Shown piece by piece: positions 216 through 35,642 of a stretch of DNA of 49,065 nucleotides. The notes beneath the pieces were generated by a model, which worked only from the letters and a program-made list of their open reading frames with translations, did not search any database and was not told the origin of the DNA. Source of the stretch: an uncultured Campylobacterales bacterium (GTDB taxonomy: Bacteria; Campylobacterota; Campylobacteria; Campylobacterales; JAADDG01); contig CAZPVZ010000197.1 in assembly GCA_964590185.1 (NCBI GenBank), positions 1 through 49,065 on the forward strand, read 5' to 3'. Both the position numbers and the translations under genes were made by a program. Numbering within the stretch: the stretch's first letter is position 1; the number at the start of each line of letters is the position of its first letter.

Positions 216-2666
216 ATGGAGTATAAGCCTAAAGAGATAGAAAAGAAATGGCAGAAATTTTGGATTCAAAACGGACTTTACGAACCTAAGGAGGATAAAA
301 CCCTTCCTAAGAAATACGTCCTTAGCATGTTCCCTTATCCCAGCGGAAGAATGCATATGGGACATGTGAGAAACTATACCATAAGCGACGCTTTTGCGAG
401 ATATTTTAGAAAAGAGGGATTTAACGTTCTTCATCCGATGGGATGGGACGCATTCGGAATGCCCGCCGAAAACGCCGCTATAAAGCATAAGGTTCACCCT
501 AAAAAGTGGACTTACGAAAATATAGACTATATGAGAAAAGAGTTCGATTCGCTGGGACTCTCTTTTTCCAAGGAGAGGGAATTCGCCACTTGCGACGAGA
601 TTTACAGCAAACACGAGCAGAAAATTATTTTGGAGATGTGGCGAAAAGGTCTTATATATAGAAAAAAATCTCTCGTTAATTGGTGCGAAACCTGCCATAC
701 GGTTTTGGCGAACGAGCAGGTTATAGAGGGGTGCTGCTGGAGATGCGACAATCCCATCGTGCAAAAAGAGATGTTTCAATACTTTGCGAAAATTACCGAT
801 TACGCCAAAGAACTTTTGGATGATCTTAAAAAGCTTGAAAAAGGGTGGCCCTCCCAAGTTATAACGATGCAAAGAAATTGGATCGGAGAGAGCGAAGGGC
901 TGGAGTTTGAGTTTCCTTTGGACGGAGAGAGCGCTAAGAAGCTCGGCGGAGAGATAAAAGGTTTTAAGGTTTTTACGACCAGAGCCGATACGATTTACGG
1001 AGTTACTTATGCGGCTTTGGCTCCCGAACACGAAATAGTTCTCAAGCTTTTAAAAAGCGATCTTTTGGATAACGAGACCAAAGAGAAGATAAAGAGGATG
1101 CAAGCCGTTCCTCCGAGAGAAAGAGGAAGCCGAGAGAAAGAGGGAATTTTTACGGGACTTTACGCCGTTCATCCTTTAACCGGCGAAAAGATTCCGGTAT
1201 GGATAGCCAATTTCGTCATCGTAGAGTACGGAAGCGGAGCGGTTATGAGCGTTCCGGCTCATGACGAAAGGGATTTCGAATTTGCCAAAAAGTACGATCT
1301 GCCCGTAAAATACGTAATAAAACCTAAAGAGGGAGAGATAGATAGAAGTTTTGCTTTTACCGAACCCGGAGTTATGATAAATTCCGACGGTTTCGACGGT
1401 ATGGATAGTAGGGAGGCTAAAAACAAGATTATAAAACTTTTCGAAGAGAAGGGTTTGGGCAAGAAAGTTATCAACTACAAGCTTAGAGATTGGGGAATCA
1501 GCAGACAAAGATATTGGGGAACTCCGATACCTTTGATTCATTGCAAAAAGTGTTCGATCGTGGAGGTTCCTCTCGATCAGCTGCCCGTAACTTTGCCCGA
1601 AGACGTCGAGATAACGGGAGAGGGCAATCCTCTTGAGAAGCATCCCACTTGGAAATATGTAAAATGCCCCAAATGCGGGGGAGACGCCGTTAGAGAAACG
1701 GACACTTTGGATACTTTCGTAGAGAGCAGTTGGTATTTTTTAAGATACGCCACTCCCAAAAAATATTGGGAGCAAAAGGTCGTGGATAAGGAGAGCGTGG
1801 ATTATTGGATGAGCGTGGATCACTACATAGGAGGGATAGAGCACGCCATTTTGCACCTTTTGTATTCGAGATTTTTTACGAAAGTGATGAGAGATTTGGG
1901 ATATGTGGACGTGGACGAGCCTTTCGAGAGACTTTTGACTCAAGGGATGGTTTTAAAAGACGGCGCGAAGATGAGCAAATCGAAAGGCAATATCGTAGAT
2001 CCGGACTTTTTGATAGAGAAATACGGAGCCGATACGGCGAGGCTTTTTATCCTTTTCGCCGCTCCTCCCACCAAAGAGATAGAGTGGAACGATAATGCGG
2101 TCGAAGGTGCTTATAAATTTATAAAGAGATTTGCCGACAGAAGCCGTTTTGCGAAAAAAACCGACTCTCTTTTGGATATAGATCACTCCTCTTTAAGCAA
2201 GGAGGAGAAGTTTGCGAGAAAGAAAGTTTACGAAGCTTTGAAAAAATATAACGAAGTTTACGCCTCTACTTACGCTTTCAATACGATGATAGCCGCTTCG
2301 ATGGAGGCTCTGAACGCTTTAAGCGCTCAAAATAACGAAGATGTCTGGACGGAGGGATATTATATACTCACAAACGTTTTGGAGCCGGTCATTCCTCATA
2401 TCTGCTGGGAGATAAGCAAGGAGCTTTTCGATCTTAAGAATTTCGGAAAGATTCCTTTGAAAGAGGAGGTTTTCAAAGAGGATACGATGACGATCGTAGT
2501 GAGCGTAAACGGCAAGAAAAGGGGAGATATGGAGGTTCCCAAAGATATGAGCAAAGATGAGATTTTATCTTTGGGCAAAGAAGAAGTTAAAAAATGGCTG
2601 GAGGGTAAAAATTTAATTAAAGAAATTTATGTACCCGGAAAACTCGTTAATTTCGTCGTCAAATAG
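216..2666 (+). CDS. leuS: Leucyl-tRNA synthetase
   Basis: 816 aa. Class I HIGH-type motif (HMGHVRNY), KMSKS motif (KMSKSKGN), and a LeuRS-typical N-terminus (KWQKFW...). GGGGA RBS upstream of the ATG. Confidence 0.97.
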
Positions 2667-2701
2667 ATGATGAAAGTTTTCGGTTACTTATGTTAAAATA
2701 A

Positions 2702-3238
2702 GTGACCGAAACTTTAAAGGCCGTTTTCATGCTTATAAGAGCTTTGATACTTGTGATAATTCTCTCTTTTTACGGGTGCGGATACAAGCCCGTCTCTTCA
2801 TACTCCAAAGAGGCGCTCGGAGAGTCCGTTTTCGTCGATGTCGAGTCCTCTTTGGAAGATCCCGAAAATACGGTTTTGATAAAAGACGCCATAAACGACG
2901 TTTTGGTAAGCCGCTTTCACGCAAGACTTACGAGCAAGAAGGACGCTAAAGTAAAACTCCGTCTTAAACTTAAAAAAGTTCTTTTCGAGCCTATACGCTA
3001 CGATAGAAACGGTTTCGTAACCGCTTACAACACTCGCGTGGAGTTAAGCACCGAATATGAAAGTTTGAAGGGAAAAAAGACGATAGTTACAACCGGAGAG
3101 TATGCTTTCCCGATAGAATCAAACAGCGTCATCTCCGATACCAAAAGATTCGAAGCCATTAAAAACGCTTCAAAAAAGGCGATTGACGAGTTTATTTCTA
3201 AAATCGCCGTAGAGGGACTTTTATATGACGGTAAATGA
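2702..3238 (+). CDS. lptE: LptE-like LPS-assembly lipoprotein
   Basis: Position immediately after leuS, as in many proteobacteria. Lipobox SFYGC followed by GYKP, and a small beta-rich protein. The start is uncertain: GTG 2702 lies inside a hairpin, and ATG 2729 (MLIRALILVIILSFYGC) is an alternative. Confidence 0.55.
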   Translation: MTETLKAVFMLIRALILVIILSFYGCGYKPVSSYSKEALGESVFVDVESSLEDPENTVLIKDAINDVLVSRFHARLTSKKDAKVKLRLKLKKVLFEPIRYDRNGFVTAYNTRVELSTEYESLKGKKTIVTTGEYAFPIESNSVISDTKRFEAIKNASKKAIDEFISKIAVEGLLYDGK

Positions 3239-4775
3239 GATTGCTAAAGAGGCTATCGAGATTATCAATAAAAATTACGAGCTTTTAACGCCGGAGAACT
3301 ATTTTAAGGCTTTCTGTTTCGTTGCGAAAAAGAGAGGTTTTATAGTAGAGGACTGTCAAAAGCTTGAGAAATATCTGAAAAAACTCGATCCGGTGATTCA
3401 AAACGAGGCTAAAAAATTCTCAATAAGAAACATTGACGATTTTTTCGCTTTTTTGATAGCCTATATAAACAGAGTCAATAAACTCGAATCTTCGGCGCAT
3501 ATAAAACAGCTTAGCCTTTTGATAAAAAGAATTCTTCAAGCCGTTACTCTTTTGCACGATAAAGAGGCGGCGGAATTGGCTCAGATATCTATGGACAGAA
3601 TAAGCTATACGGTGGATACGGAGTCTATAGAGCTTATAAAGGATAAATGGTTCGATTTCGTTACCTCTTACGACGACTCCTATTTAAACAAGCTCGATCC
3701 TTATTGCAAAGTTGATAAGGAAGATTTGAAAACCATGGTAAACGAGCTTGTAGAGTGTTTTGAAAACGGATGCGAAGAGAGGATAAAAGAGTCTCTCTCG
3801 AAACTCGCTCCCATACTGATAGCTTCTTTGACTCCTTCCATAGCTTCGGAAGTTGACGACGAGCTTGCCGTAATCTCTTACGAGCTGCAAAATTCTCCCG
3901 AATCTTTGACGGCGGAAGGCTTTTTGGAAGATTTGAAAAAGATGATCAAAAGAAGAAAACAGCTCGATAAGGATAAGGTGAGGGAGAAGGTTGCGGTTTT
4001 GAACTCTCTTTTGCAGGATATCTCTTTTAAAATTATAGAGCTTGTAGAAAAGAGCAATTTAAGCAACGAAAAGATCAAAAAGATAAAGAACGATATAAAA
4101 AATACCGACTTTCAAGAAAGCTCTTTGGAGGCGATTCAAAAGAAGCTTTTAAAAATAGCCCAATCTTTAGAGATAGAGACCGAGAGTCTTTCCAACAAGA
4201 TGGAAAATCATAAACAGATTATAAAACAGCTTTATACGAGAGTGAAAAAGCTTGAGAAAGCCTTGATGCTCGCAAAAAGAGAGATAAAGATAGACTTTTT
4301 AACCTCCACTCTTTCAAAAAGAGGGCTTGACGAAGAGATGCATAAGGCCGAGGAGAGCTACAAGAGATATAAAACCAACTATTCGGTGTGTTTTTTCGAT
4401 ATAGACTACTTTAAAATTATAAACGACACTTACGGTCATGACGCGGGAGACGTGATTTTAAAAACGATAGGGGAACTTTTCAGAAAAAACGCAAGAGAAG
4501 TCGATATAGTCGGAAGATACGGGGGAGAGGAGTTTGTGGTTATACTTCCCAACGTGGATTTGAAGGGAGCCATTAAATTTGCTAATAAAATGAGACTGTT
4601 GGTTAAATCCAACCGTTTTATTTATAAAAACGAGCGTATTTACGTCTCTATAAGCGGCGGAGTAAGCCAAAGAAAGGATCATAGAAGTTTGGAAGAGACT
4701 TTAAATGCCGCCGACGAACTTTTGTATAAAGCCAAGGCGGCCGGAAGAAATAAAATAATGCCGGAATTCGGATGA
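3225..4775 (+). CDS. Diguanylate cyclase (C-terminal GGDEF domain, long coiled-coil N-terminal region)
   Basis: C-terminal FFDIDYFKIINDTYGHDAGD...RYGGEEFVVILP. The GGEEF active site has an RxxD I-site (REVD) 5 residues upstream. No TM segment. The start overlaps the lptE end by 14 nt. Confidence 0.85.
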   Translation: MTVNEIAKEAIEIINKNYELLTPENYFKAFCFVAKKRGFIVEDCQKLEKYLKKLDPVIQNEAKKFSIRNIDDFFAFLIAYINRVNKLESSAHIKQLSLLIKRILQAVTLLHDKEAAELAQISMDRISYTVDTESIELIKDKWFDFVTSYDDSYLNKLDPYCKVDKEDLKTMVNELVECFENGCEERIKESLSKLAPILIASLTPSIASEVDDELAVISYELQNSPESLTAEGFLEDLKKMIKRRKQLDKDKVREKVAVLNSLLQDISFKIIELVEKSNLSNEKIKKIKNDIKNTDFQESSLEAIQKKLLKIAQSLEIETESLSNKMENHKQIIKQLYTRVKKLEKALMLAKREIKIDFLTSTLSKRGLDEEMHKAEESYKRYKTNYSVCFFDIDYFKIINDTYGHDAGDVILKTIGELFRKNAREVDIVGRYGGEEFVVILPNVDLKGAIKFANKMRLLVKSNRFIYKNERIYVSISGGVSQRKDHRSLEETLNAADELLYKAKAAGRNKIMPEFG

Positions 4776-29670: not shown

Positions 29671-30027
29671 TTAAAACGCGCTTTCTATATATTTTTGCAA
29701 AGAGGAGAGAGTTTGCAAACCTATGACTTTATTTACGATCATGGAATCTTTTACGAAAACTAAAGTGGGTATGCTGGTTACGTTAAATAAAGCCGCAAGC
29801 TCTTTGTCTTCGTCTATGTTTATTTTATAGATCTTTACGCCTTTGTAGTTATCTAACTTTTTTAGGTTTTCTCCGGTAACTTTGCACGGCGGACACCATG
29901 GAGCGTAAAAATCGAGTATTATTTTACCCTTTCTTATCTTTTGAGGATATTCGCTCATCGTGAGACGATCGAACGAAAATAGATTTACGCTTATAACGAG
30001 CAAAAGTAGAGAAAAAAGTTTTTTCAC
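29671..30027 (-). CDS. Periplasmic thioredoxin (signal peptide + WCPPC)
   Basis: Signal peptide MKKLFSLLLLVISVNLFS, a FYAPWCPPCK active site, and cis-Pro context (TSIPTLVF). Confidence 0.85.
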   Translation of the reverse strand: MKKLFSLLLLVISVNLFSFDRLTMSEYPQKIRKGKIILDFYAPWCPPCKVTGENLKKLDNYKGVKIYKINIDEDKELAALFNVTSIPTLVFVKDSMIVNKVIGLQTLSSLQKYIESAF

Positions 30028-30029
30028 CG

Positions 30030-30395
30030 CTACTCCTTAAAATATTTTTTTATACTTTCCTCCATCTCTTTGAGGTTTTTGGCTCCGACTTCTCTTCCTT
30101 TAACTTGGTTGCCTTTGAAATAGAGGATCGTAGGAACATAAGCAATTCCCATTCCAATTGAAAGATTTTTATTTTTCCCCGCATGAACGAAATATATTTT
30201 GAGATTTTTAGGATGCAGTTTTTGAATGGTTTCGTTGAGATCTTTTGAATTCGGATCTTTCGGAACGTAAAAAACTACGATTTTATTGCCGGGAGATTGA
30301 ATTTTTGCCATGAAATCTTTTTCTCCTATCTCTTCGAAGGCAAATAAAGTTACGCTAAATAGAGATACGATAAAAAAAATTAAACTTTTCTTCAT
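30030..30395 (-). CDS. Periplasmic thioredoxin-fold protein lacking the CXXC motif
   Basis: Signal peptide. Same size and fold pattern as the neighbour (VVFYVPKDPNSKD where WCxxC is expected; YVPTILYFKG), and no cysteine in the mature protein. Confidence 0.6.
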   Translation of the reverse strand: MKKSLIFFIVSLFSVTLFAFEEIGEKDFMAKIQSPGNKIVVFYVPKDPNSKDLNETIQKLHPKNLKIYFVHAGKNKNLSIGMGIAYVPTILYFKGNQVKGREVGAKNLKEMEESIKKYFKE

Positions 30396-30491
30396 AATTT
30401 TCCTTTTTTAATGAATTTTAATTTTTAATCCCATCATCTTACAATAAACTCTTTTAAGTTATAATTACGCAAAAAGAAAAAGAGGTGTCGT

Positions 30492-32051
30492 ATGAAATAT
30501 TTGATGAGTATTGATGCCGGAACCGGAAGCGTAAGGGCGGTTATTTTCGATATAAACGGGAGAGAAATCTCCATATCCCAAAGAGAGTGGACTCATCTTC
30601 CTACGAAAGGCGTTGAGGGTTCGATGGAATTTGATTTTAGAAAAAATTGGCCTCTCGTGTGCGAGTGCGTCAAAGAGGCGAGGGCCAAAGCCGGCGTAAA
30701 AGCGGATGATATTTTGGCCGTTACTTCAACGAGTATGAGAGAAGGGATAGTACTGTACGATAAAGACGGAAACGAGTTATGGGCGGTTGCGAACGTTGAT
30801 GCGAGGGCTAAAGAGGAGGTTAGGGAGCTAAAAGAGAAATTTCCGGGAATAGAGGAGGAGTTTTATAAAGAAAGCGGACAGACTTTCGCTTTGGGAGCGT
30901 TGCCGAGGCTTCTTTGGCTTAAAAAAAACAGGCCGGATATTTACGAAAAAGTCTCGAAAATTTCCATGATTAGCGATTGGATTCTTTTCAAATTAACCGG
31001 CATGCTTGCGAGTGACCCCTCAAATGCCGGAACTACCGGAATTTTTTCTCTTGAAAAAAGAGAGTGGGCTCCTTATATGGCAAAGAGAGTCGGGCTTAGA
31101 GACGATATCTTTCCTCCCGTTTTGGAAAGCGGAGAAGTTATGGGAAAGGTTTCGAAAAAAGCTTCTGAAGAGACTCTGTTGAGTCGGGAGAGTTTGGTCG
31201 TTATGGGGGGAGGAGACGTTCAGTTGGGGAGCGTGGGACTTAAAGTGGTCGAAAGCGGAGACGTGGCCGTAATAGGCGGAAGTTTTTGGCAGCAGGTGGT
31301 TAATATTGAGGGTCATAAAGTTCCCGAAGATATGAGTATTAGGGTAAATCCTCACGCCGTTTCCGGCATCTCTCAAGCGGAGGGAATAAGTTTTTTTACG
31401 GGACTTATTATGAGATGGTTCAGAGACGCCTTTTGTCAAATAGAAAAGATGGAGGCTAAAAAGATAGGAGTGGATCCGTATTATCTTTTGGAAGAGATGG
31501 CAAGCAGGGTTCCCGCGGGTTCTTACGGAATCATTCCGATATTTTCCGATGAGATGAATTACGGCAAATGGTATCATGCGAGCCCCTCTTTTTTAAATCT
31601 TTCCATAGATCCGAATATATGCAATAAAAGCGCGATGTTTAGGAGTCTCGAAGAGAACGCGGCGGTAGTTTGCTCGGTAAATCTCGATAAAATCTCCTCT
31701 TTTTCGGGAGTCGATTTTGACGAGGTGGTTTTTGCCGGCGGAGCCAGCAAAGGTTTTTTGTGGCCGCGCATTTTAGCCGACGTTACGGGAAAAAAGGTTA
31801 AAATCCCGGTCGTTAAAGAGGCGACGGCTCTTGGAGGCGCTATTGCGGCGGCCGTCGGAGCCGGAGTTTTTAAGGATATGAAAGAGGGCGCTAAAGAGTT
31901 TGTTAAGTGGGAGAAGAAAATAGAACCGGATATGAACAATCACGAGCTTTATAAAGGTGTTAAAGAGAGATGGAAAAAAGCGTATAAGGCTCAATTGAAA
32001 CTCGTTGACGAGGGCGTTACTTCTTCCATGTGGAAAGCGCCGGGATTATAA
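30492..32051 (+). CDS. lsrK: FGGY-family kinase, autoinducer-2 (DPD) kinase LsrK-like
   Basis: 519 aa. It looks collinear with my recollection of enterobacterial LsrK: DAGTGS(V/I)RAVIFD, PGSMEFD..KNW..ACEC-like start, MREGIVLY, ANVDARA, DPSNAGTTG, GGGDVQLG, FWQQVVN, RVNPH, FFTGL.MRWFRDAFC, LLEEMASRVP, IFSD.M....WYHA.PSF.NLSIDP..CNK, VVKEATALG, and ending LWKAPGL/MWKAPGL. Confidence 0.8.
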   Translation: MKYLMSIDAGTGSVRAVIFDINGREISISQREWTHLPTKGVEGSMEFDFRKNWPLVCECVKEARAKAGVKADDILAVTSTSMREGIVLYDKDGNELWAVANVDARAKEEVRELKEKFPGIEEEFYKESGQTFALGALPRLLWLKKNRPDIYEKVSKISMISDWILFKLTGMLASDPSNAGTTGIFSLEKREWAPYMAKRVGLRDDIFPPVLESGEVMGKVSKKASEETLLSRESLVVMGGGDVQLGSVGLKVVESGDVAVIGGSFWQQVVNIEGHKVPEDMSIRVNPHAVSGISQAEGISFFTGLIMRWFRDAFCQIEKMEAKKIGVDPYYLLEEMASRVPAGSYGIIPIFSDEMNYGKWYHASPSFLNLSIDPNICNKSAMFRSLEENAAVVCSVNLDKISSFSGVDFDEVVFAGGASKGFLWPRILADVTGKKVKIPVVKEATALGGAIAAAVGAGVFKDMKEGAKEFVKWEKKIEPDMNNHELYKGVKERWKKAYKAQLKLVDEGVTSSMWKAPGL

Positions 32052-32071
32052 TTTTAGAGGAAGGAAAAAAG

Positions 32072-32443
32072 ATGTATCTAACCAACGAAAAAGAGCATGA
32101 GTACAGGTTTAAGGATCACGGACCCAAATATCTTACTAAAGGTCCCAACGTCGATATGGGAGTCGTCGTTATCACTCCGGGAGAGGAGCATCCTTGTCAT
32201 AAACACGAAAAACAGGAGGAGTCTTTTTTCGTATTGGAAGGGGAGTGTTCCGTTTACGTGGACGGGAAAAAAGTGGTTTTGAAAAAGGGTGATTATCTTA
32301 TATGTTCTCCCGGTGAGGCTCATTACTTTCATAACGAGAGCGATGCGGATTTTAAAGCGGTTTTTATAAAGGCTCCCCATTTGGAGGAGAAAGATAGCGT
32401 TTATATCGATTGGAAACCCGGACAAAAATTTATAAAAGAGTAA
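32072..32443 (+). CDS. Metal-binding cupin-domain protein
   Basis: Canonical cupin motif 1 (PGEEHPCHKHEKQEESFFVLEG: HxHxxxE) and motif 2 (SPGEAHYFHN). I start it at ATG 32072, after the GGAAGGA RBS and 20 nt past the lsrK stop, not at the track start 32030, which overlaps lsrK. Confidence 0.8.
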   Translation: MYLTNEKEHEYRFKDHGPKYLTKGPNVDMGVVVITPGEEHPCHKHEKQEESFFVLEGECSVYVDGKKVVLKKGDYLICSPGEAHYFHNESDADFKAVFIKAPHLEEKDSVYIDWKPGQKFIKE

Positions 32444-32446
32444 AGT

Positions 32447-33388
32447 ATGGCGGTAGATTTCGTAAAAGATAAAGATCCTCACATAATTAAGGTTGAGAGA
32501 AAATCTACGCCTTTGGAGAAAAAAGCTCCTTTGGTGGCGACTGCGGTATCGCTTTTTTTGGCGATTATAAAACTTGTTTTCGGAGTGGTTAGCGGTTCCG
32601 TGGCTCTTTTGGCTTCGGCCGTAGATTCCATTATGGATATGTTCGTTTCCGTTTTTAACTTTTTGGCGATCAGACTTTCGGATAGGAGTCCGGACGAACA
32701 GTTTCCGTTCGGATACGGTAAAGTCGAAGCTTTGGCGGCGGCTTTCGAGGGACTTGTCGTTACCGTTTCCGGATTTTATATTATTTATGAGGGCGTGATG
32801 AAAATAGTTCGTCACGAAAGCGTGGAAAAGGTCGGTTCTTCGATAGCGGTTATGGTAATTTCGATCGTTACCGTGGGACTTTTGGTATGGTTTTTGTCCT
32901 ATGTTTATAAAAAAACGGGCAATATGGTTATAAAAGCCGATTTGCTTCACTACAAAACCGATCTTTTTAGCAATTCGGCCGTTTTGCTCTCTTTGGGAAT
33001 CATCTATTTTACGAACTGGTTTTGGGTGGATGCGGTTTTCGGTATGGCTATAGGAGCTTATATCGTAAAGGAAGCCTTCGAGCTTATAAAAGAGGGCGTT
33101 TTCGTATTGCTTGACGCCTCTTTGCCGAGAGACGAGGTTGAAAAGATAGAAGAAATCATAACGACGGACGAGAAGGTTAGCGATTTTCATTTTTTAAAAA
33201 CCAGACAAGCCGGCAAGGTTAAGTTCGTCGAGGTTCACATAGTTTTAAGACCCGATATATCTCTTCTTGATGCTCATAAAATAGGAGACGAGATAGAGGA
33301 GAAGATAAGAGATATAGATAAAGAGCATATATGGCATATTCTTATACATTTGGATCCGTATGACGATTCCAAAGATCATTCCGTATAA
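32447..33388 (+). CDS. Cation diffusion facilitator (CDF) family metal efflux transporter
   Basis: Six TM helices with SGSVALLASAVDS and HYKTDL motifs, and a C-terminal cytoplasmic domain (VHIVL....S...AH.I.D.IE..I). 313 aa. Confidence 0.85.
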   Translation: MAVDFVKDKDPHIIKVERKSTPLEKKAPLVATAVSLFLAIIKLVFGVVSGSVALLASAVDSIMDMFVSVFNFLAIRLSDRSPDEQFPFGYGKVEALAAAFEGLVVTVSGFYIIYEGVMKIVRHESVEKVGSSIAVMVISIVTVGLLVWFLSYVYKKTGNMVIKADLLHYKTDLFSNSAVLLSLGIIYFTNWFWVDAVFGMAIGAYIVKEAFELIKEGVFVLLDASLPRDEVEKIEEIITTDEKVSDFHFLKTRQAGKVKFVEVHIVLRPDISLLDAHKIGDEIEEKIRDIDKEHIWHILIHLDPYDDSKDHSV

Positions 33389-33412
33389 ATTTTAATCGAG
33401 GGGGAGCGGTTT

Positions 33413-33919
33413 ATGAATCTGAAACCGGAAAATTTCAAATCTCTCTTTGAGATAATAAAAAATTATCCCATGTCGCACGTTCTTCATATAGACGAAGGCA
33501 ATAGAGAGATAATAGAAACTTTTTTGGATTTTGTAAGGGATAAGGAACTGGTTTATCATTTAAACGTTATGGACAAAAGGCTTTTTGAAGAGTTAAAGAG
33601 CGAATTTGCGGATATGGAGCATTGTAAAATTAGAGATTTCTCTTTCGAACAGGATAGATATACGAAACATTCCGTTTTGTACGATACCGCTTTCGTTACC
33701 GCGGATATTTCGAAAGTAAAAGATTTGAAAGAGGTTTTGAAAAAACTGTATAGAGTTATGAAAAATTCCGGAGACGTTGTTTTGTTTGTCGGAGAGATGA
33801 GAGAGAAAATTGCGAATCTGCTCGTGGATCTAAATTACGTCGCGGTTAATACGATAGAGGGATTCGAGCCTTTTATCGTTTTGACGGCTAAGAAGATGCA
33901 CGGTTGGAAAAAGGTTTGA
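33413..33919 (+). CDS. Hypothetical protein, possibly a degenerate class-I methyltransferase-like fold
   Basis: 168 aa, last gene of the lsrK operon. Only a weak LKKLYRVMKNSGDVVLF pattern, and no clear SAM motif I. Confidence 0.35.
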   Translation: MNLKPENFKSLFEIIKNYPMSHVLHIDEGNREIIETFLDFVRDKELVYHLNVMDKRLFEELKSEFADMEHCKIRDFSFEQDRYTKHSVLYDTAFVTADISKVKDLKEVLKKLYRVMKNSGDVVLFVGEMREKIANLLVDLNYVAVNTIEGFEPFIVLTAKKMHGWKKV

Positions 33920-33920
33920 A

Positions 33921-33950
33921 GCAAAAGGGATTGAACCCTTTTGCTTTTTA
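33921..33950. terminator. Bidirectional rho-independent terminator
   Basis: Perfect 9-bp stem GCAAAAGGG / CCCTTTTGC (33921-33929 and 33936-33944), a 6-nt loop, then TTTTT. It lies between convergent genes. Confidence 0.75.
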
Positions 33951-35642
33951 GTCTATATCGTTTTTTAGAAGATAGGCGAGTTTTTTTAGATTTTCGTCCA
34001 TAACGGGAGTGTTTTTTATGATATATAGAAGCTGGGCGTCGCTTAGTCTGCTTTTTTGTTGAAATTTGGGTTTTAGTTTGCTCCAAAACTTTCTTACTCT
34101 CTCCAGATGGGCTTTCGCTTTCGGAGTTTCCGCTTCCAAACTTCCGAAATTCTTATCTCCTTTTAAAATATTGCTGAATATTAAAATGGAACCGTTTAGT
34201 TTTTTTCTATTTTCTTTGGGATCTATGTTCCCTTCTATTAAGAGTCTCTCTTTCGCCATTTTTTGAAGAAGGTATCTCTCTCTTTGAACGAGCGCCACTT
34301 TATGAGCCGTGTATGTTCCTATCGAGGAGTCCTCTTGCATGATTCTTTGGACTCTTAAAGTGAAAGCGTTCGTTTTTCTAAGAAGCTTTTCGTTGTTGTT
34401 TAAAACGTACAAAAGAGCGTCTCTGTCTATCTTGCCCGATAGAAATTTTTTTACGTTTTCGTAGAAAGGTTGCCACTCTTTATCTATCTCCGATAGCTGT
34501 TTTCTCGCTATTTTATCCGTAATTTTGGGTATTCCGGCCTTTTCGTCTCCGTTTATGAACGCTTTTAGCGTTTTATCGAACTGCAAGGAGCTTTCTTTCA
34601 AATTTTCAAGATGTTTTTCCGGTTCGACTCCCATTATCGTTAATATTATCTCTTTAACCATTTTTTGGGTTCGGGCTTGTTGGAGATAGGCTTCGTTTAT
34701 CAGTTTGTCGTTTTGACTGATCGCTTTTTCGAAAGAGTTTACTATCTGGGATATTTTGGAGATTTTGATTTGTCTTTTTATCGACTGTTCGTACATTTTG
34801 ACGGCTTTGTCCATCTCTTTGAGAGTCAAAGCCAAAGCGTCCGTTATGGCTTTTAATCTCTTTTTAGAGTATTTTTCTTCGTTTAGCGTAGGTTTTATCT
34901 GATCCCAATAACCTTTTACGATAAGAAGCTGCTGTTTTATGTTGTTTAATTTGCATCCTTTGCTTCCTATCTCCTTATCTCCGTAAAGGAGGGCTTTTAA
35001 ACTTCTATCGAAAAGGTTTATCGTTTTTTTCAACTCTTTTTTATTTTTTTCCGGTTCTATTCCCAAATCTATCAAAAGGAGCTCTTTAGACATCTTTTGA
35101 GTGAGCATCCTTTGTCGTCCGGCTATGTTTATGTCGTTTGCTATGTCTATTTTTAGTTTGGATAGGTTTCCGCTTTGTTCCACGAACATCGTAACGGCTT
35201 TATGCATATTTTTTAGAAGCGGAACGTTTTTGCGGGAAATATTTAATAAAACCTCTCTTGAGGTGTTTCCTTTCAAAATCTCTTGCAGATCCTTTTTGAA
35301 ATCTTCCCACAGCTTTTGAACTTTTCTCAGTTGCGTCTGTATGCTTTTCGAATTCGTTTTTGCGAGTCTTAACTCTTTATCCCCGTGCATCAGACCGTTT
35401 AATGTTTTTTCGAAAAGTTTCATGGAACTTTCAAGGTCTTTTTTGTTTTTTTCTACATCTATTCCCTCGGCTATTAAAAGAGCGTCTTTAGACATCTTTT
35501 GAGTGAGCATTCTCTGTTTGCCGGCTAAGTTGATGATGATTCCCATCTCTTTGTCGGTTATGGCAAACAGAGCGCTTGAGGTTAAAAACATTAACGTCAA
35601 AAAGGATAAAATGACTCTTTTAAACGCGTTGAACTTTTGCAA
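33948..35642 (-). CDS. Stand-alone periplasmic protein with four PilJ-N / NarX P-box-like sensor repeats
   Basis: Signal peptide. Four ~130-aa units, each opening with a P-box-like motif (INLAGKQRMLTQKMSKDALLI; INIAGRQRMLTQKMSKELLLI; AYLQQARTQKMVKEIIL; ALVQRERYLLQKMAKERLLI) and ending with a W-containing helix (KLWEDFK, GYWDQIK, KEWQPFY, KFWSKLK). No TM or output domain after the signal peptide. Confidence 0.7.
   Translation of the reverse strand: MQKFNAFKRVILSFLTLMFLTSSALFAITDKEMGIIINLAGKQRMLTQKMSKDALLIAEGIDVEKNKKDLESSMKLFEKTLNGLMHGDKELRLAKTNSKSIQTQLRKVQKLWEDFKKDLQEILKGNTSREVLLNISRKNVPLLKNMHKAVTMFVEQSGNLSKLKIDIANDINIAGRQRMLTQKMSKELLLIDLGIEPEKNKKELKKTINLFDRSLKALLYGDKEIGSKGCKLNNIKQQLLIVKGYWDQIKPTLNEEKYSKKRLKAITDALALTLKEMDKAVKMYEQSIKRQIKISKISQIVNSFEKAISQNDKLINEAYLQQARTQKMVKEIILTIMGVEPEKHLENLKESSLQFDKTLKAFINGDEKAGIPKITDKIARKQLSEIDKEWQPFYENVKKFLSGKIDRDALLYVLNNNEKLLRKTNAFTLRVQRIMQEDSSIGTYTAHKVALVQRERYLLQKMAKERLLIEGNIDPKENRKKLNGSILIFSNILKGDKNFGSLEAETPKAKAHLERVRKFWSKLKPKFQQKSRLSDAQLLYIIKNTPVMDENLKKLAYLLKNDID

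Follow-up and report, generated by a model that had tools for sequence, protein, structure and literature searches.

What does a kinase of the autoinducer-2 (AI-2) system do in a genome where most of that system is not found? The question is raised by contig CAZPVZ010000197.1 of an uncultured Campylobacterales bacterium of lineage JAADDG01 (assembly GCA_964590185.1), here called the window and analysed over its whole length of 49,065 nucleotides. The window is one contig of a 1.91-Mb metagenome-assembled genome (242 contigs, 86.5% complete), and its DNA is present in hydrothermal-vent metagenome runs. Two adjacent genes are the main subject:

30492–32051, plus strand: lsrK orthologue, predicted FGGY-family kinase of AI-2 (4,5-dihydroxy-2,3-pentanedione, DPD), 519 aa, assigned by profile, domains and tree
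32072–32443, plus strand: LsrK-associated monocupin, 123 aa, with a 3-His-1-Glu metal site, assigned by the Cupin_2 profile, alignment and model

Our answer, to which we give a probability of about 0.6, is that lsrK and the cupin gene form the two-gene core of an importer-less and repressor-less variant of the Lsr system, which is widespread in LuxS-positive Campylobacterales and should serve the internal salvage of DPD. For the comparisons the genome of the window is denoted G000 and three genus mates G001–G003, of which G002 is 100% complete. Relatives were sampled as 61 genomes from 26 families of Campylobacterales, and individual loci are given L-numbers, L002 being the lsr locus of E. coli K-12.

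The kinase

The product of the first gene scores 863.8 bits against the NCBIfam LsrK equivalog NF008187 (cut-off 528), with residues 1–519 aligned to profile positions 3–521, and the runner-up family is XylB with 196 bits. Both Pfam domains of the FGGY kinases are present (FGGY_N with 164 bits and FGGY_C with 66 bits). The protein is 57% identical to LsrK of E. coli K-12 over its full length with a single internal gap of one residue, and the DAGTGS phosphate loop, F312 and R322 (E. coli numbering) and the C-terminal WKAPGL are all kept. Residues F312 and R322 have been named as part of the LsrK active site (PMC8028047). The initial annotation, which had described an LsrK-like kinase collinear with the enterobacterial protein down to WKAPGL, is thus borne out by score, identity and motifs.

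The FGGY phylogeny that had been suggested as a check gives the same result. In a quick IQ-TREE run one clade (SH-aLRT 93, stem length 4.0) unites the kinase with 37 homologues from Campylobacterales, with E. coli LsrK and with the LsrK encoded at a canonical Bacillus lsr locus, and E. coli XylB, GlpK, LyxK, AraB and RhaB are located far outside. The kinase is an LsrK orthologue, for which phosphorylation of DPD is predicted by orthology, and it is the sole FGGY kinase found in the genome. Among the relatives LsrK scores above the cut-off in 21 of 61, and a 22nd genome (G055) has a partial copy at a contig end.

Lsr partners and LuxS

The canonical partners of LsrK are not found. E. coli queries for LsrR, LsrC, LsrD, LsrB, LsrF and LsrG give no tblastn match in the genome of the window, and LsrA matches generic ABC ATPases only; LsrA, LsrC and LsrD were searched in this genome alone. 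LsrB is not found in G000–G003, including the complete G002, and neither is LsrR, the divergent neighbours of lsrK being two thioredoxin-like genes. None of these four genomes matches the LsrG family NF007791, and LsrF has no match in G000 and generic matches of 21–25 bits only in two of the genus mates. HPr inhibits LsrK in E. coli (PMC5983913); it is not found in G000–G003 with PF00381, which did match in the control genomes. The named E. coli control genome gives no LsrK match above the cut-off and no LsrG match at all and is presumably a strain lacking both genes, so that the LsrK and LsrG searches are not validated by that control, and the K-12 locus L002 was used as positive reference instead. 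No other lsr genes are present in the window, and E. coli-type lsr neighbours occur at none of 20 lsrK loci across the order and at none of 80 metagenome cupin loci. The orphan status first assigned to the kinase therefore holds for the whole genome as regards LsrR, LsrB, LsrC, LsrD, LsrF and LsrG, and LsrB, LsrR and LsrG are not found in the three genus mates either.

The proposed genome-wide search, which included luxS, leaves the lsr partners not found and luxS found. LuxS with an intact HTLEH motif is encoded on contig C232 of the same genome, and LuxS is present in 59 of the 61 relatives. When neighbours are clustered over 38 lsrK loci, luxS is found in four of them. In G038 lsrK, the cupin gene and luxS follow each other in this order on one strand (1392–3794 of its contig), and luxS is also located near lsrK and the cupin gene in L044, L045, L053 and L139. 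In the genome of the window itself lsrK, luxS and the aldolase-like gene described below are distributed over at least three contigs. As neither an AI-2 importer nor a repressor is found and the genome has its own LuxS, DPD is probably recycled internally, and the kinase would not serve for eavesdropping on neighbours.

The cupin gene and its linkage to lsrK

The alignment of 23 homologues places the conserved start of the cupin at the ATG at 32072, and not at the GTG at 32030 with which the frame began in the list of open reading frames (ORFs); with this start the gene follows lsrK after a gap of 20 nt. It is located beside lsrK in many Campylobacterales families, and 11 of the 12 cupin-positive relatives have LsrK. 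A metagenome scan gave 80 cupin loci, 59 of them informative; in 41 of these lsrK immediately precedes the cupin gene on the same strand, and in a further nine it is located within 5 kb. Outside the order, Bacillus sp. V5-8f encodes a 53–55% identical homologue between lsrK and lsrF, with lsrA, lsrC, lsrD and lsrR in the same locus, and in a second LsrK-positive Bacillaceae genome the cupin gene is found 3' of lsrK. LsrG is not found above its cut-off in either of these two genomes.

The pairing has been known since 2012, and the kinase adds one more member to a family already described. Quan and Bentley (2012) noted that members of the B. cereus group, Spirochaeta smaragdinae and Salmonella consistently encode a 'mannose-6-phosphate isomerase' beside lsrK, and suggested that this cupin takes part in the processing of phospho-AI-2 (PMC3420918). 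It is called Lsr-associated also in Table 4 of PMC8876208, and its label in SEED is 'Cupin domain protein in AI-2-related operon'. The cupin of the window belongs to this group, since it adjoins lsrK and is homologous to the cupin inside the Bacillus lsr locus. The cupin is a conserved partner of LsrK, and the functional partnership that had been proposed from one locus is supported by adjacency in metagenome loci, in many families and in the lsr locus of Bacillus.

Three cupin copies in relatives (G007:C168:20682–21050, G030:C37:40460–40828 and G024:C34:13229–13600) have no lsrK, aldolase, ABM or luxS gene within 8 kb on either side, indicating that the pair is not always physically joined. 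In L113:230–7240 (metagenome contig Ga0316209_1000131), and similarly in L097, L104, L107 and L110, lsrK and the cupin gene are set apart by intervening genes, namely a 110-aa ORF, a 420-aa ORF and genes for a ZnuA-type binding protein and an ABC-3 permease, and then come trxA, a 164-aa ORF and trxB. Genes for metal transport and thioredoxin are thus located near lsrK and the cupin gene in two lineages.

The cupin and the LsrG-like ABM protein

The suggestion that the cupin could take the place of LsrG was examined by its distribution relative to an ABM protein of about 95 aa, found in 9 of the 38 lsrK loci, which matches the LsrG equivalog weakly (22–34 bits, cut-off 135). The gene for this protein is present in 11 of the 61 relatives, and all 11 are LsrK-positive. 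The 22 LsrK-positive relatives are distributed as follows:

Cupin only: 9 of 22, including the genus of the window
ABM only: 9 of 22
Cupin and ABM: 2 of 22 (G007 and G025)
Neither: 2 of 22, one genome 83% complete and one whose aldolase gene has stop codons

The two proteins are thus largely complementary, with exactly one of them in 18 of the 22 genomes, and this is the best, though imperfect, support for the cupin performing the LsrG reaction. The suggestion stands in part: it agrees with the position of the cupin gene between lsrK and lsrF in a Bacillus without detectable LsrG and with the mostly complementary occurrence, but a fair number of loci contain both genes.

Sequence and predicted structure of the cupin

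The cupin scores 76.8 bits against Cupin_2 (PF07883, cut-off 27.2). Family members from Campylobacterales, Shewanella and Motiliproteus are 70–95% identical, with 73–77% for the Shewanella and Motiliproteus homologues, and E. coli K-12 has no homologue. The HxHxxxE motif (H43, H45, E49/E50) and the H-x3-N motif (H84, N88), which had been read as intact in the single sequence, are invariant across the family, and so are the basic residues R12, K19, K95, K100 and K107. These conserved arginine and lysine residues around the predicted metal site would fit a phosphorylated substrate.

The structural model (pLDDT 94) is a single beta-barrel of ten strands. The closest solved folds are generic small cupins with at most 27% identity, namely an archaeal phosphomannose isomerase, KdgF, TM1459 and DddK, and a comparison by sequence puts the cupin domains of the dioxygenase YxaG quercetinase closest among the solved relatives. 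The protein matches neither the ABM nor the LsrG profile, and its beta-barrel is not the ferredoxin-like fold of the ABM proteins.

A class II aldolase-like partner

Clustering of the neighbours of the 38 lsrK loci also brings out a protein of about 390 aa that resembles class II aldolases, present in 18 of them, which the initial annotation had missed. Pfam recognises a class II aldolase domain in it, and it matches the 400 N-terminal residues of bifunctional aldolase/short-chain dehydrogenase families. Its relatives score 430–440 bits against the aldolase half of RhaD-type proteins (TIGR02632 and PRK08324 families), below every equivalog cut-off. In the genome of the window the gene is located on contig C76 (188–1363), and its 391-aa product is 52–54% identical to the copies adjacent to lsrK. 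The aldolase-like gene co-varies with lsrK over the 61 relatives:

LsrK and aldolase-like protein: 20 of 61
LsrK only: 2 of 61, both at most 90% complete
Aldolase-like protein only: 1 of 61, 88% complete
Neither: 38 of 61

In three relatives the aldolase-like match is found in longer frames of 654–671 aa (G007:C2:8302–9459, G025:C2:68616–69803 and G030:C88:15091–16233), which suggests that they carry the full bifunctional aldolase/short-chain dehydrogenase and not the stand-alone form of 390 aa. Two of them, G007 and G025, are the two relatives with both cupin and ABM. In G055 (C120:1–1190) lsrK is truncated by the contig end and the adjoining aldolase-like gene has three stop codons, so the lsrK module of this genome may be decaying.

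Proposed pathway and alternatives

Kinase orthology, the missing Lsr partners, gene linkage and phyletic co-occurrence were computed here, and every substrate and reaction in the following scheme is inferred. From the presence and linkage of its gene, LuxS should produce DPD in the cytoplasm as a side product of the activated methyl cycle. By orthology, LsrK would phosphorylate DPD at C5 and thereby trap it. Judged by context and chemistry, the cupin may then isomerise phospho-DPD to 3-hydroxy-2,4-pentanedione 5-phosphate in an ene-diol shift assisted by the metal, the same conversion as that of LsrG but on another fold; the 3-keto-4-hydroxy pair would be converted to a 1-phospho-2-keto-3-hydroxy arrangement. 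Enzymes of the class II aldolase family stabilise the ene-diolate of dihydroxyacetone phosphate (DHAP) on zinc. On the same grounds of context and chemistry, the stand-alone class II (zinc) aldolase-like enzyme might split the isomerised product into DHAP and a two-carbon unit, replacing the CoA-dependent LsrF. The outcome would be the salvage of five carbons, or the removal of a reactive diketone, in a vent bacterium with a small genome.

A number of observations weigh against this scheme. The functions of all three pathway proteins of the lineage are predictions from sequence, linkage and orthology, and the related genomes are non-independent samples, so that the co-occurrence counts overstate the support. 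At 86.5% completeness the genome may encode a non-Lsr importer. LsrK is not in view at 9 of the 59 informative cupin loci despite at least 1.7 kb of upstream sequence. The fold matches of the cupin are all generic monocupins and do not settle whether it acts as isomerase, dioxygenase or tautomerase. The cupin and the ABM protein are found together in 6 of 19 cupin-seeded genome loci and in 10 of the 80 metagenome loci, and the cupin accompanies a complete lsr system in Salmonella (PMC3420918), indicating that it may catalyse another or an additional reaction.

The last point leads to a variant that overlaps with our scheme and that we regard as doubtful: the pathway would be the same, but the cupin would either open the ring of cyclic DPD ahead of the kinase in the manner of KdgF, or act on phospho-DPD as an oxygen-dependent dioxygenase resembling Dke1 or acireductone dioxygenase. 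KdgF is among the closest solved folds, the YxaG domains are the nearest by sequence, and the coexistence with ABM in some loci and with LsrG in Salmonella (PMC3420918) would be simpler if the proteins had different jobs. The variant agrees less well with the 18 of 22 LsrK-positive relatives that have exactly one of the two, with the Bacillus lsr loci, which keep LsrF, an enzyme that needs the isomerised substrate, together with a cupin and no LsrG found, and with the gene order, in which the kinase precedes the cupin. The unit was first read as a minimal module for the scavenging or quenching of external AI-2, which would enter by an unrecognised transporter, be trapped by LsrK and be destroyed via the cupin. 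No importer is found beside about 100 related loci and no transporter gene is conserved beside lsrK and the cupin gene; LsrB is not found in the four genus genomes, nor LsrC and LsrD in that of the window, where LsrA has generic matches only; and no LsrR-type sensor is found. The presence of luxS in the genome, and its linkage to lsrK and the cupin gene in several lineages, points instead to an internal source. We therefore consider external scavenging unlikely, even though textbooks assign this role to LsrK, vent biofilms form dense mixed communities, LuxS is near-universal in the order, and re-uptake would be compatible with internal salvage in a genome that is 86.5% complete.

A route for a deoxy-sugar or pentulose unrelated to AI-2, with the cupin as isomerase, an FGGY kinase that has drifted from DPD and the class II aldolase, would resemble FucI-FucK-FucA and RhaA-RhaB-RhaD. 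The three enzyme types fit the logic of the fucose and rhamnose pathways, RhaD-type domains are the closest match of the aldolase-like protein, and specificities of FGGY kinases are known to shift. Such a route is nevertheless very improbable given a kinase that scores far above the LsrK cut-off and falls in the same clade as the E. coli and Bacillus enzymes with no separate subclade, the recurring adjacency of luxS, the confinement of the ABM gene to LsrK-positive genomes (11 of 11), the presence of the same cupin family within true lsr loci, and the lack of a conserved sugar transporter nearby. Internal salvage of DPD by LsrK and the cupin remains the reading that we prefer. A bolder version of it is tentative and leaves us more inclined to doubt than to accept it: LuxS-positive vent Campylobacterota would close the activated methyl cycle by an internal loop not described before, from LuxS through LsrK and a new metal-dependent class of cupin isomerase to a CoA-independent cleavage of class II aldolase type yielding DHAP and a two-carbon unit, AI-2 would be recycled as a metabolite in these bacteria and would not be broadcast as a signal, and a small protein with a methyltransferase fold, described below, would be a further component.

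Relation to known systems

Compared with the Lsr system of E. coli and Salmonella (lsrRK and lsrACDBFG), the arrangement shares the LsrK orthologue, the likely LuxS-made substrate DPD and a proposed isomerisation followed by carbon-carbon cleavage to DHAP and a two-carbon unit. It differs in that LsrB, LsrC, LsrD, LsrR, LsrG, HPr and a credible LsrF are not found, the genes are scattered, the source of DPD is probably internal, and the proposed isomerase and cleavage enzymes have unrelated folds (cupin and class II aldolase-like). As in the Lsr-associated cupins described earlier (PMC3420918; our source for the Salmonella protein), a small cupin is encoded beside lsrK, and its metal ligands are kept in comparison with Bacillus sp. 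V5-8f; in the organisms of that earlier description, however, the gene is located inside a complete lsr importer and regulator locus, and here it accompanies an orphan lsrK. With LsrG the cupin would share the reaction and the position in the pathway, but it is a beta-barrel with a His3-Glu metal site whereas LsrG is a metal-free ferredoxin-like ABM dimer, so the likeness is one of functional analogy and not of family membership. The 391-aa protein encoded on C76 matches the N-terminal aldolase half of RhaD-type bifunctional aldolase/dehydrogenases, but the dehydrogenase half is missing in most genomes, and the gene is linked to lsrK and not to rhamnose genes.

No description of the importer-less Campylobacterota arrangement with its aldolase-like partner and luxS linkage was found in the searchable literature. 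Since the 2000s it has been debated whether AI-2 is a true inter-species signal or mainly a side product of the activated methyl cycle (PMC2561040), and a lineage with DPD production, the kinase and candidate breakdown enzymes, in which no importer, receptor or repressor is found, is a natural test case for this debate. If the proposed pathway is correct, DPD is reclaimed inside the cell, and a first function would be assigned to two enzyme families so far uncharacterised, the cupin found with lsrK in at least three phyla and the stand-alone RhaD-type aldolase. The kinase, the cupin and the aldolase-like protein are all small and soluble, which makes direct in vitro tests possible.

Neighbouring genes and transcription signals

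The following features surround the two genes:

30438–30465, plus strand: promoter-like site CTTACA–16 nt–TATAAT, ranked first among 13 sigma-70-like sites of the region with 10 of 12 matches, by consensus match alone
32447–33388, plus strand: CDF divalent-metal exporter, 313 aa, with Cation_efflux and ZT_dimer domains
33413–33919, plus strand: small protein of 168 aa whose predicted structure is a class I methyltransferase fold
33918–33947, no strand assigned: intrinsic-terminator hairpin with a 12-bp stem followed by UUUUU
29671–30395, minus strand: two thioredoxin-like genes with signal peptides (Pfam Thioredoxin), divergent from lsrK
33948–35642, minus strand: 564-aa protein with three PilJ-type sensor domains and no signalling domain detected, convergent with the operon

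The layout given in the initial annotation is confirmed in its main points. The four ORFs are located on the plus strand with intergenic gaps of 20, 3 and 24 nt, and the -10 sequence TATAAT at 30460–30465, 26 nt upstream of the start codon of the kinase gene, belongs to the top promoter-like site of the region. The unit is closed by a strong terminator, which was not reported by a simple terminator scan but is evident from the sequence and from folding (-17.2 kcal/mol, z = -4.26, none of 200 shuffled sequences equally stable). The four genes as one functional module, on the other hand, are not upheld, as the exporter gene is a neighbour of the cupin gene within the genus only and the gene for the 168-aa protein in the genome of the window only. 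Both are probably co-transcribed with lsrK and the cupin gene at the level of the genus or strain, outside the conserved module.

The exporter scores 254.8 bits against TIGR01297 (cut-off 82.35) and 241.7 bits against the FieF equivalog NF050169 (cut-off 420), and it is the sole CDF protein found in the genome. It is most likely the general divalent-metal exporter of the cell, sharing a transcript with lsrK and the cupin gene. The exporter was considered as a functional partner of the pair and rejected; a 49% identical CDF gene is located upstream of lsrK in L097, L104 and L107, with two genes on the opposite strand intervening in L107.

The 168-aa protein has no Pfam or NCBIfam match at threshold, the UbiE methyltransferase profile giving 15.8 bits against a cut-off of 20.1. 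The top Foldseek matches of its model (pLDDT 88) are all S-adenosylmethionine (SAM) methyltransferases with TMq values of 0.7–0.76. SAM motif I reads IDEGNRE and not GxGxG, and this segment falls outside the conserved columns of the family. We are confident that the predicted structure is a methyltransferase fold of class I, in which SAM-binding motif I is degenerate. The family, in which a C-terminal AKKMHGW motif is conserved, is restricted to Campylobacterota and is present in 29 of the 61 relatives regardless of LsrK. The gene is located beside lsrK, the cupin gene and the CDF gene in the genome of the window alone and elsewhere in the genomes of the genus mates, and a family member is found upstream of lsrK in G004. 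In several families divergent members are located 140–370 nt downstream of luxS on the same strand (G018, G033, G037, G048 and L044, 8835–9338), and counterparts of these by sequence clustering are present in L045 and L053. The 168-aa family may thus be an unrecognised partner of LuxS, although the recurring luxS link is not counted as evidence here. The 164-aa ORF that follows trxA in L113 was considered as a relative of the 168-aa protein and found to be unrelated.

The vent metatranscriptome run X4 gives three short contigs on the window, one of 151 bases in the cupin gene with no differences and two of 230 and 151 bases in the CDF gene with four differences each. They span no gene junction and may represent carry-over of DNA, and are thus a weak hint of expression at most; uncovered stretches carry no information either way.

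The PilJ-domain gene on the minus strand uses the same terminator hairpin as the operon. The thioredoxin-like pair is kept upstream of lsrK in G001–G003; the first protein contains WCPPC, and in the second the CxxC motif is lost. On contig C76 another thioredoxin-like gene is located 3' of the aldolase-like gene (1408–1737).

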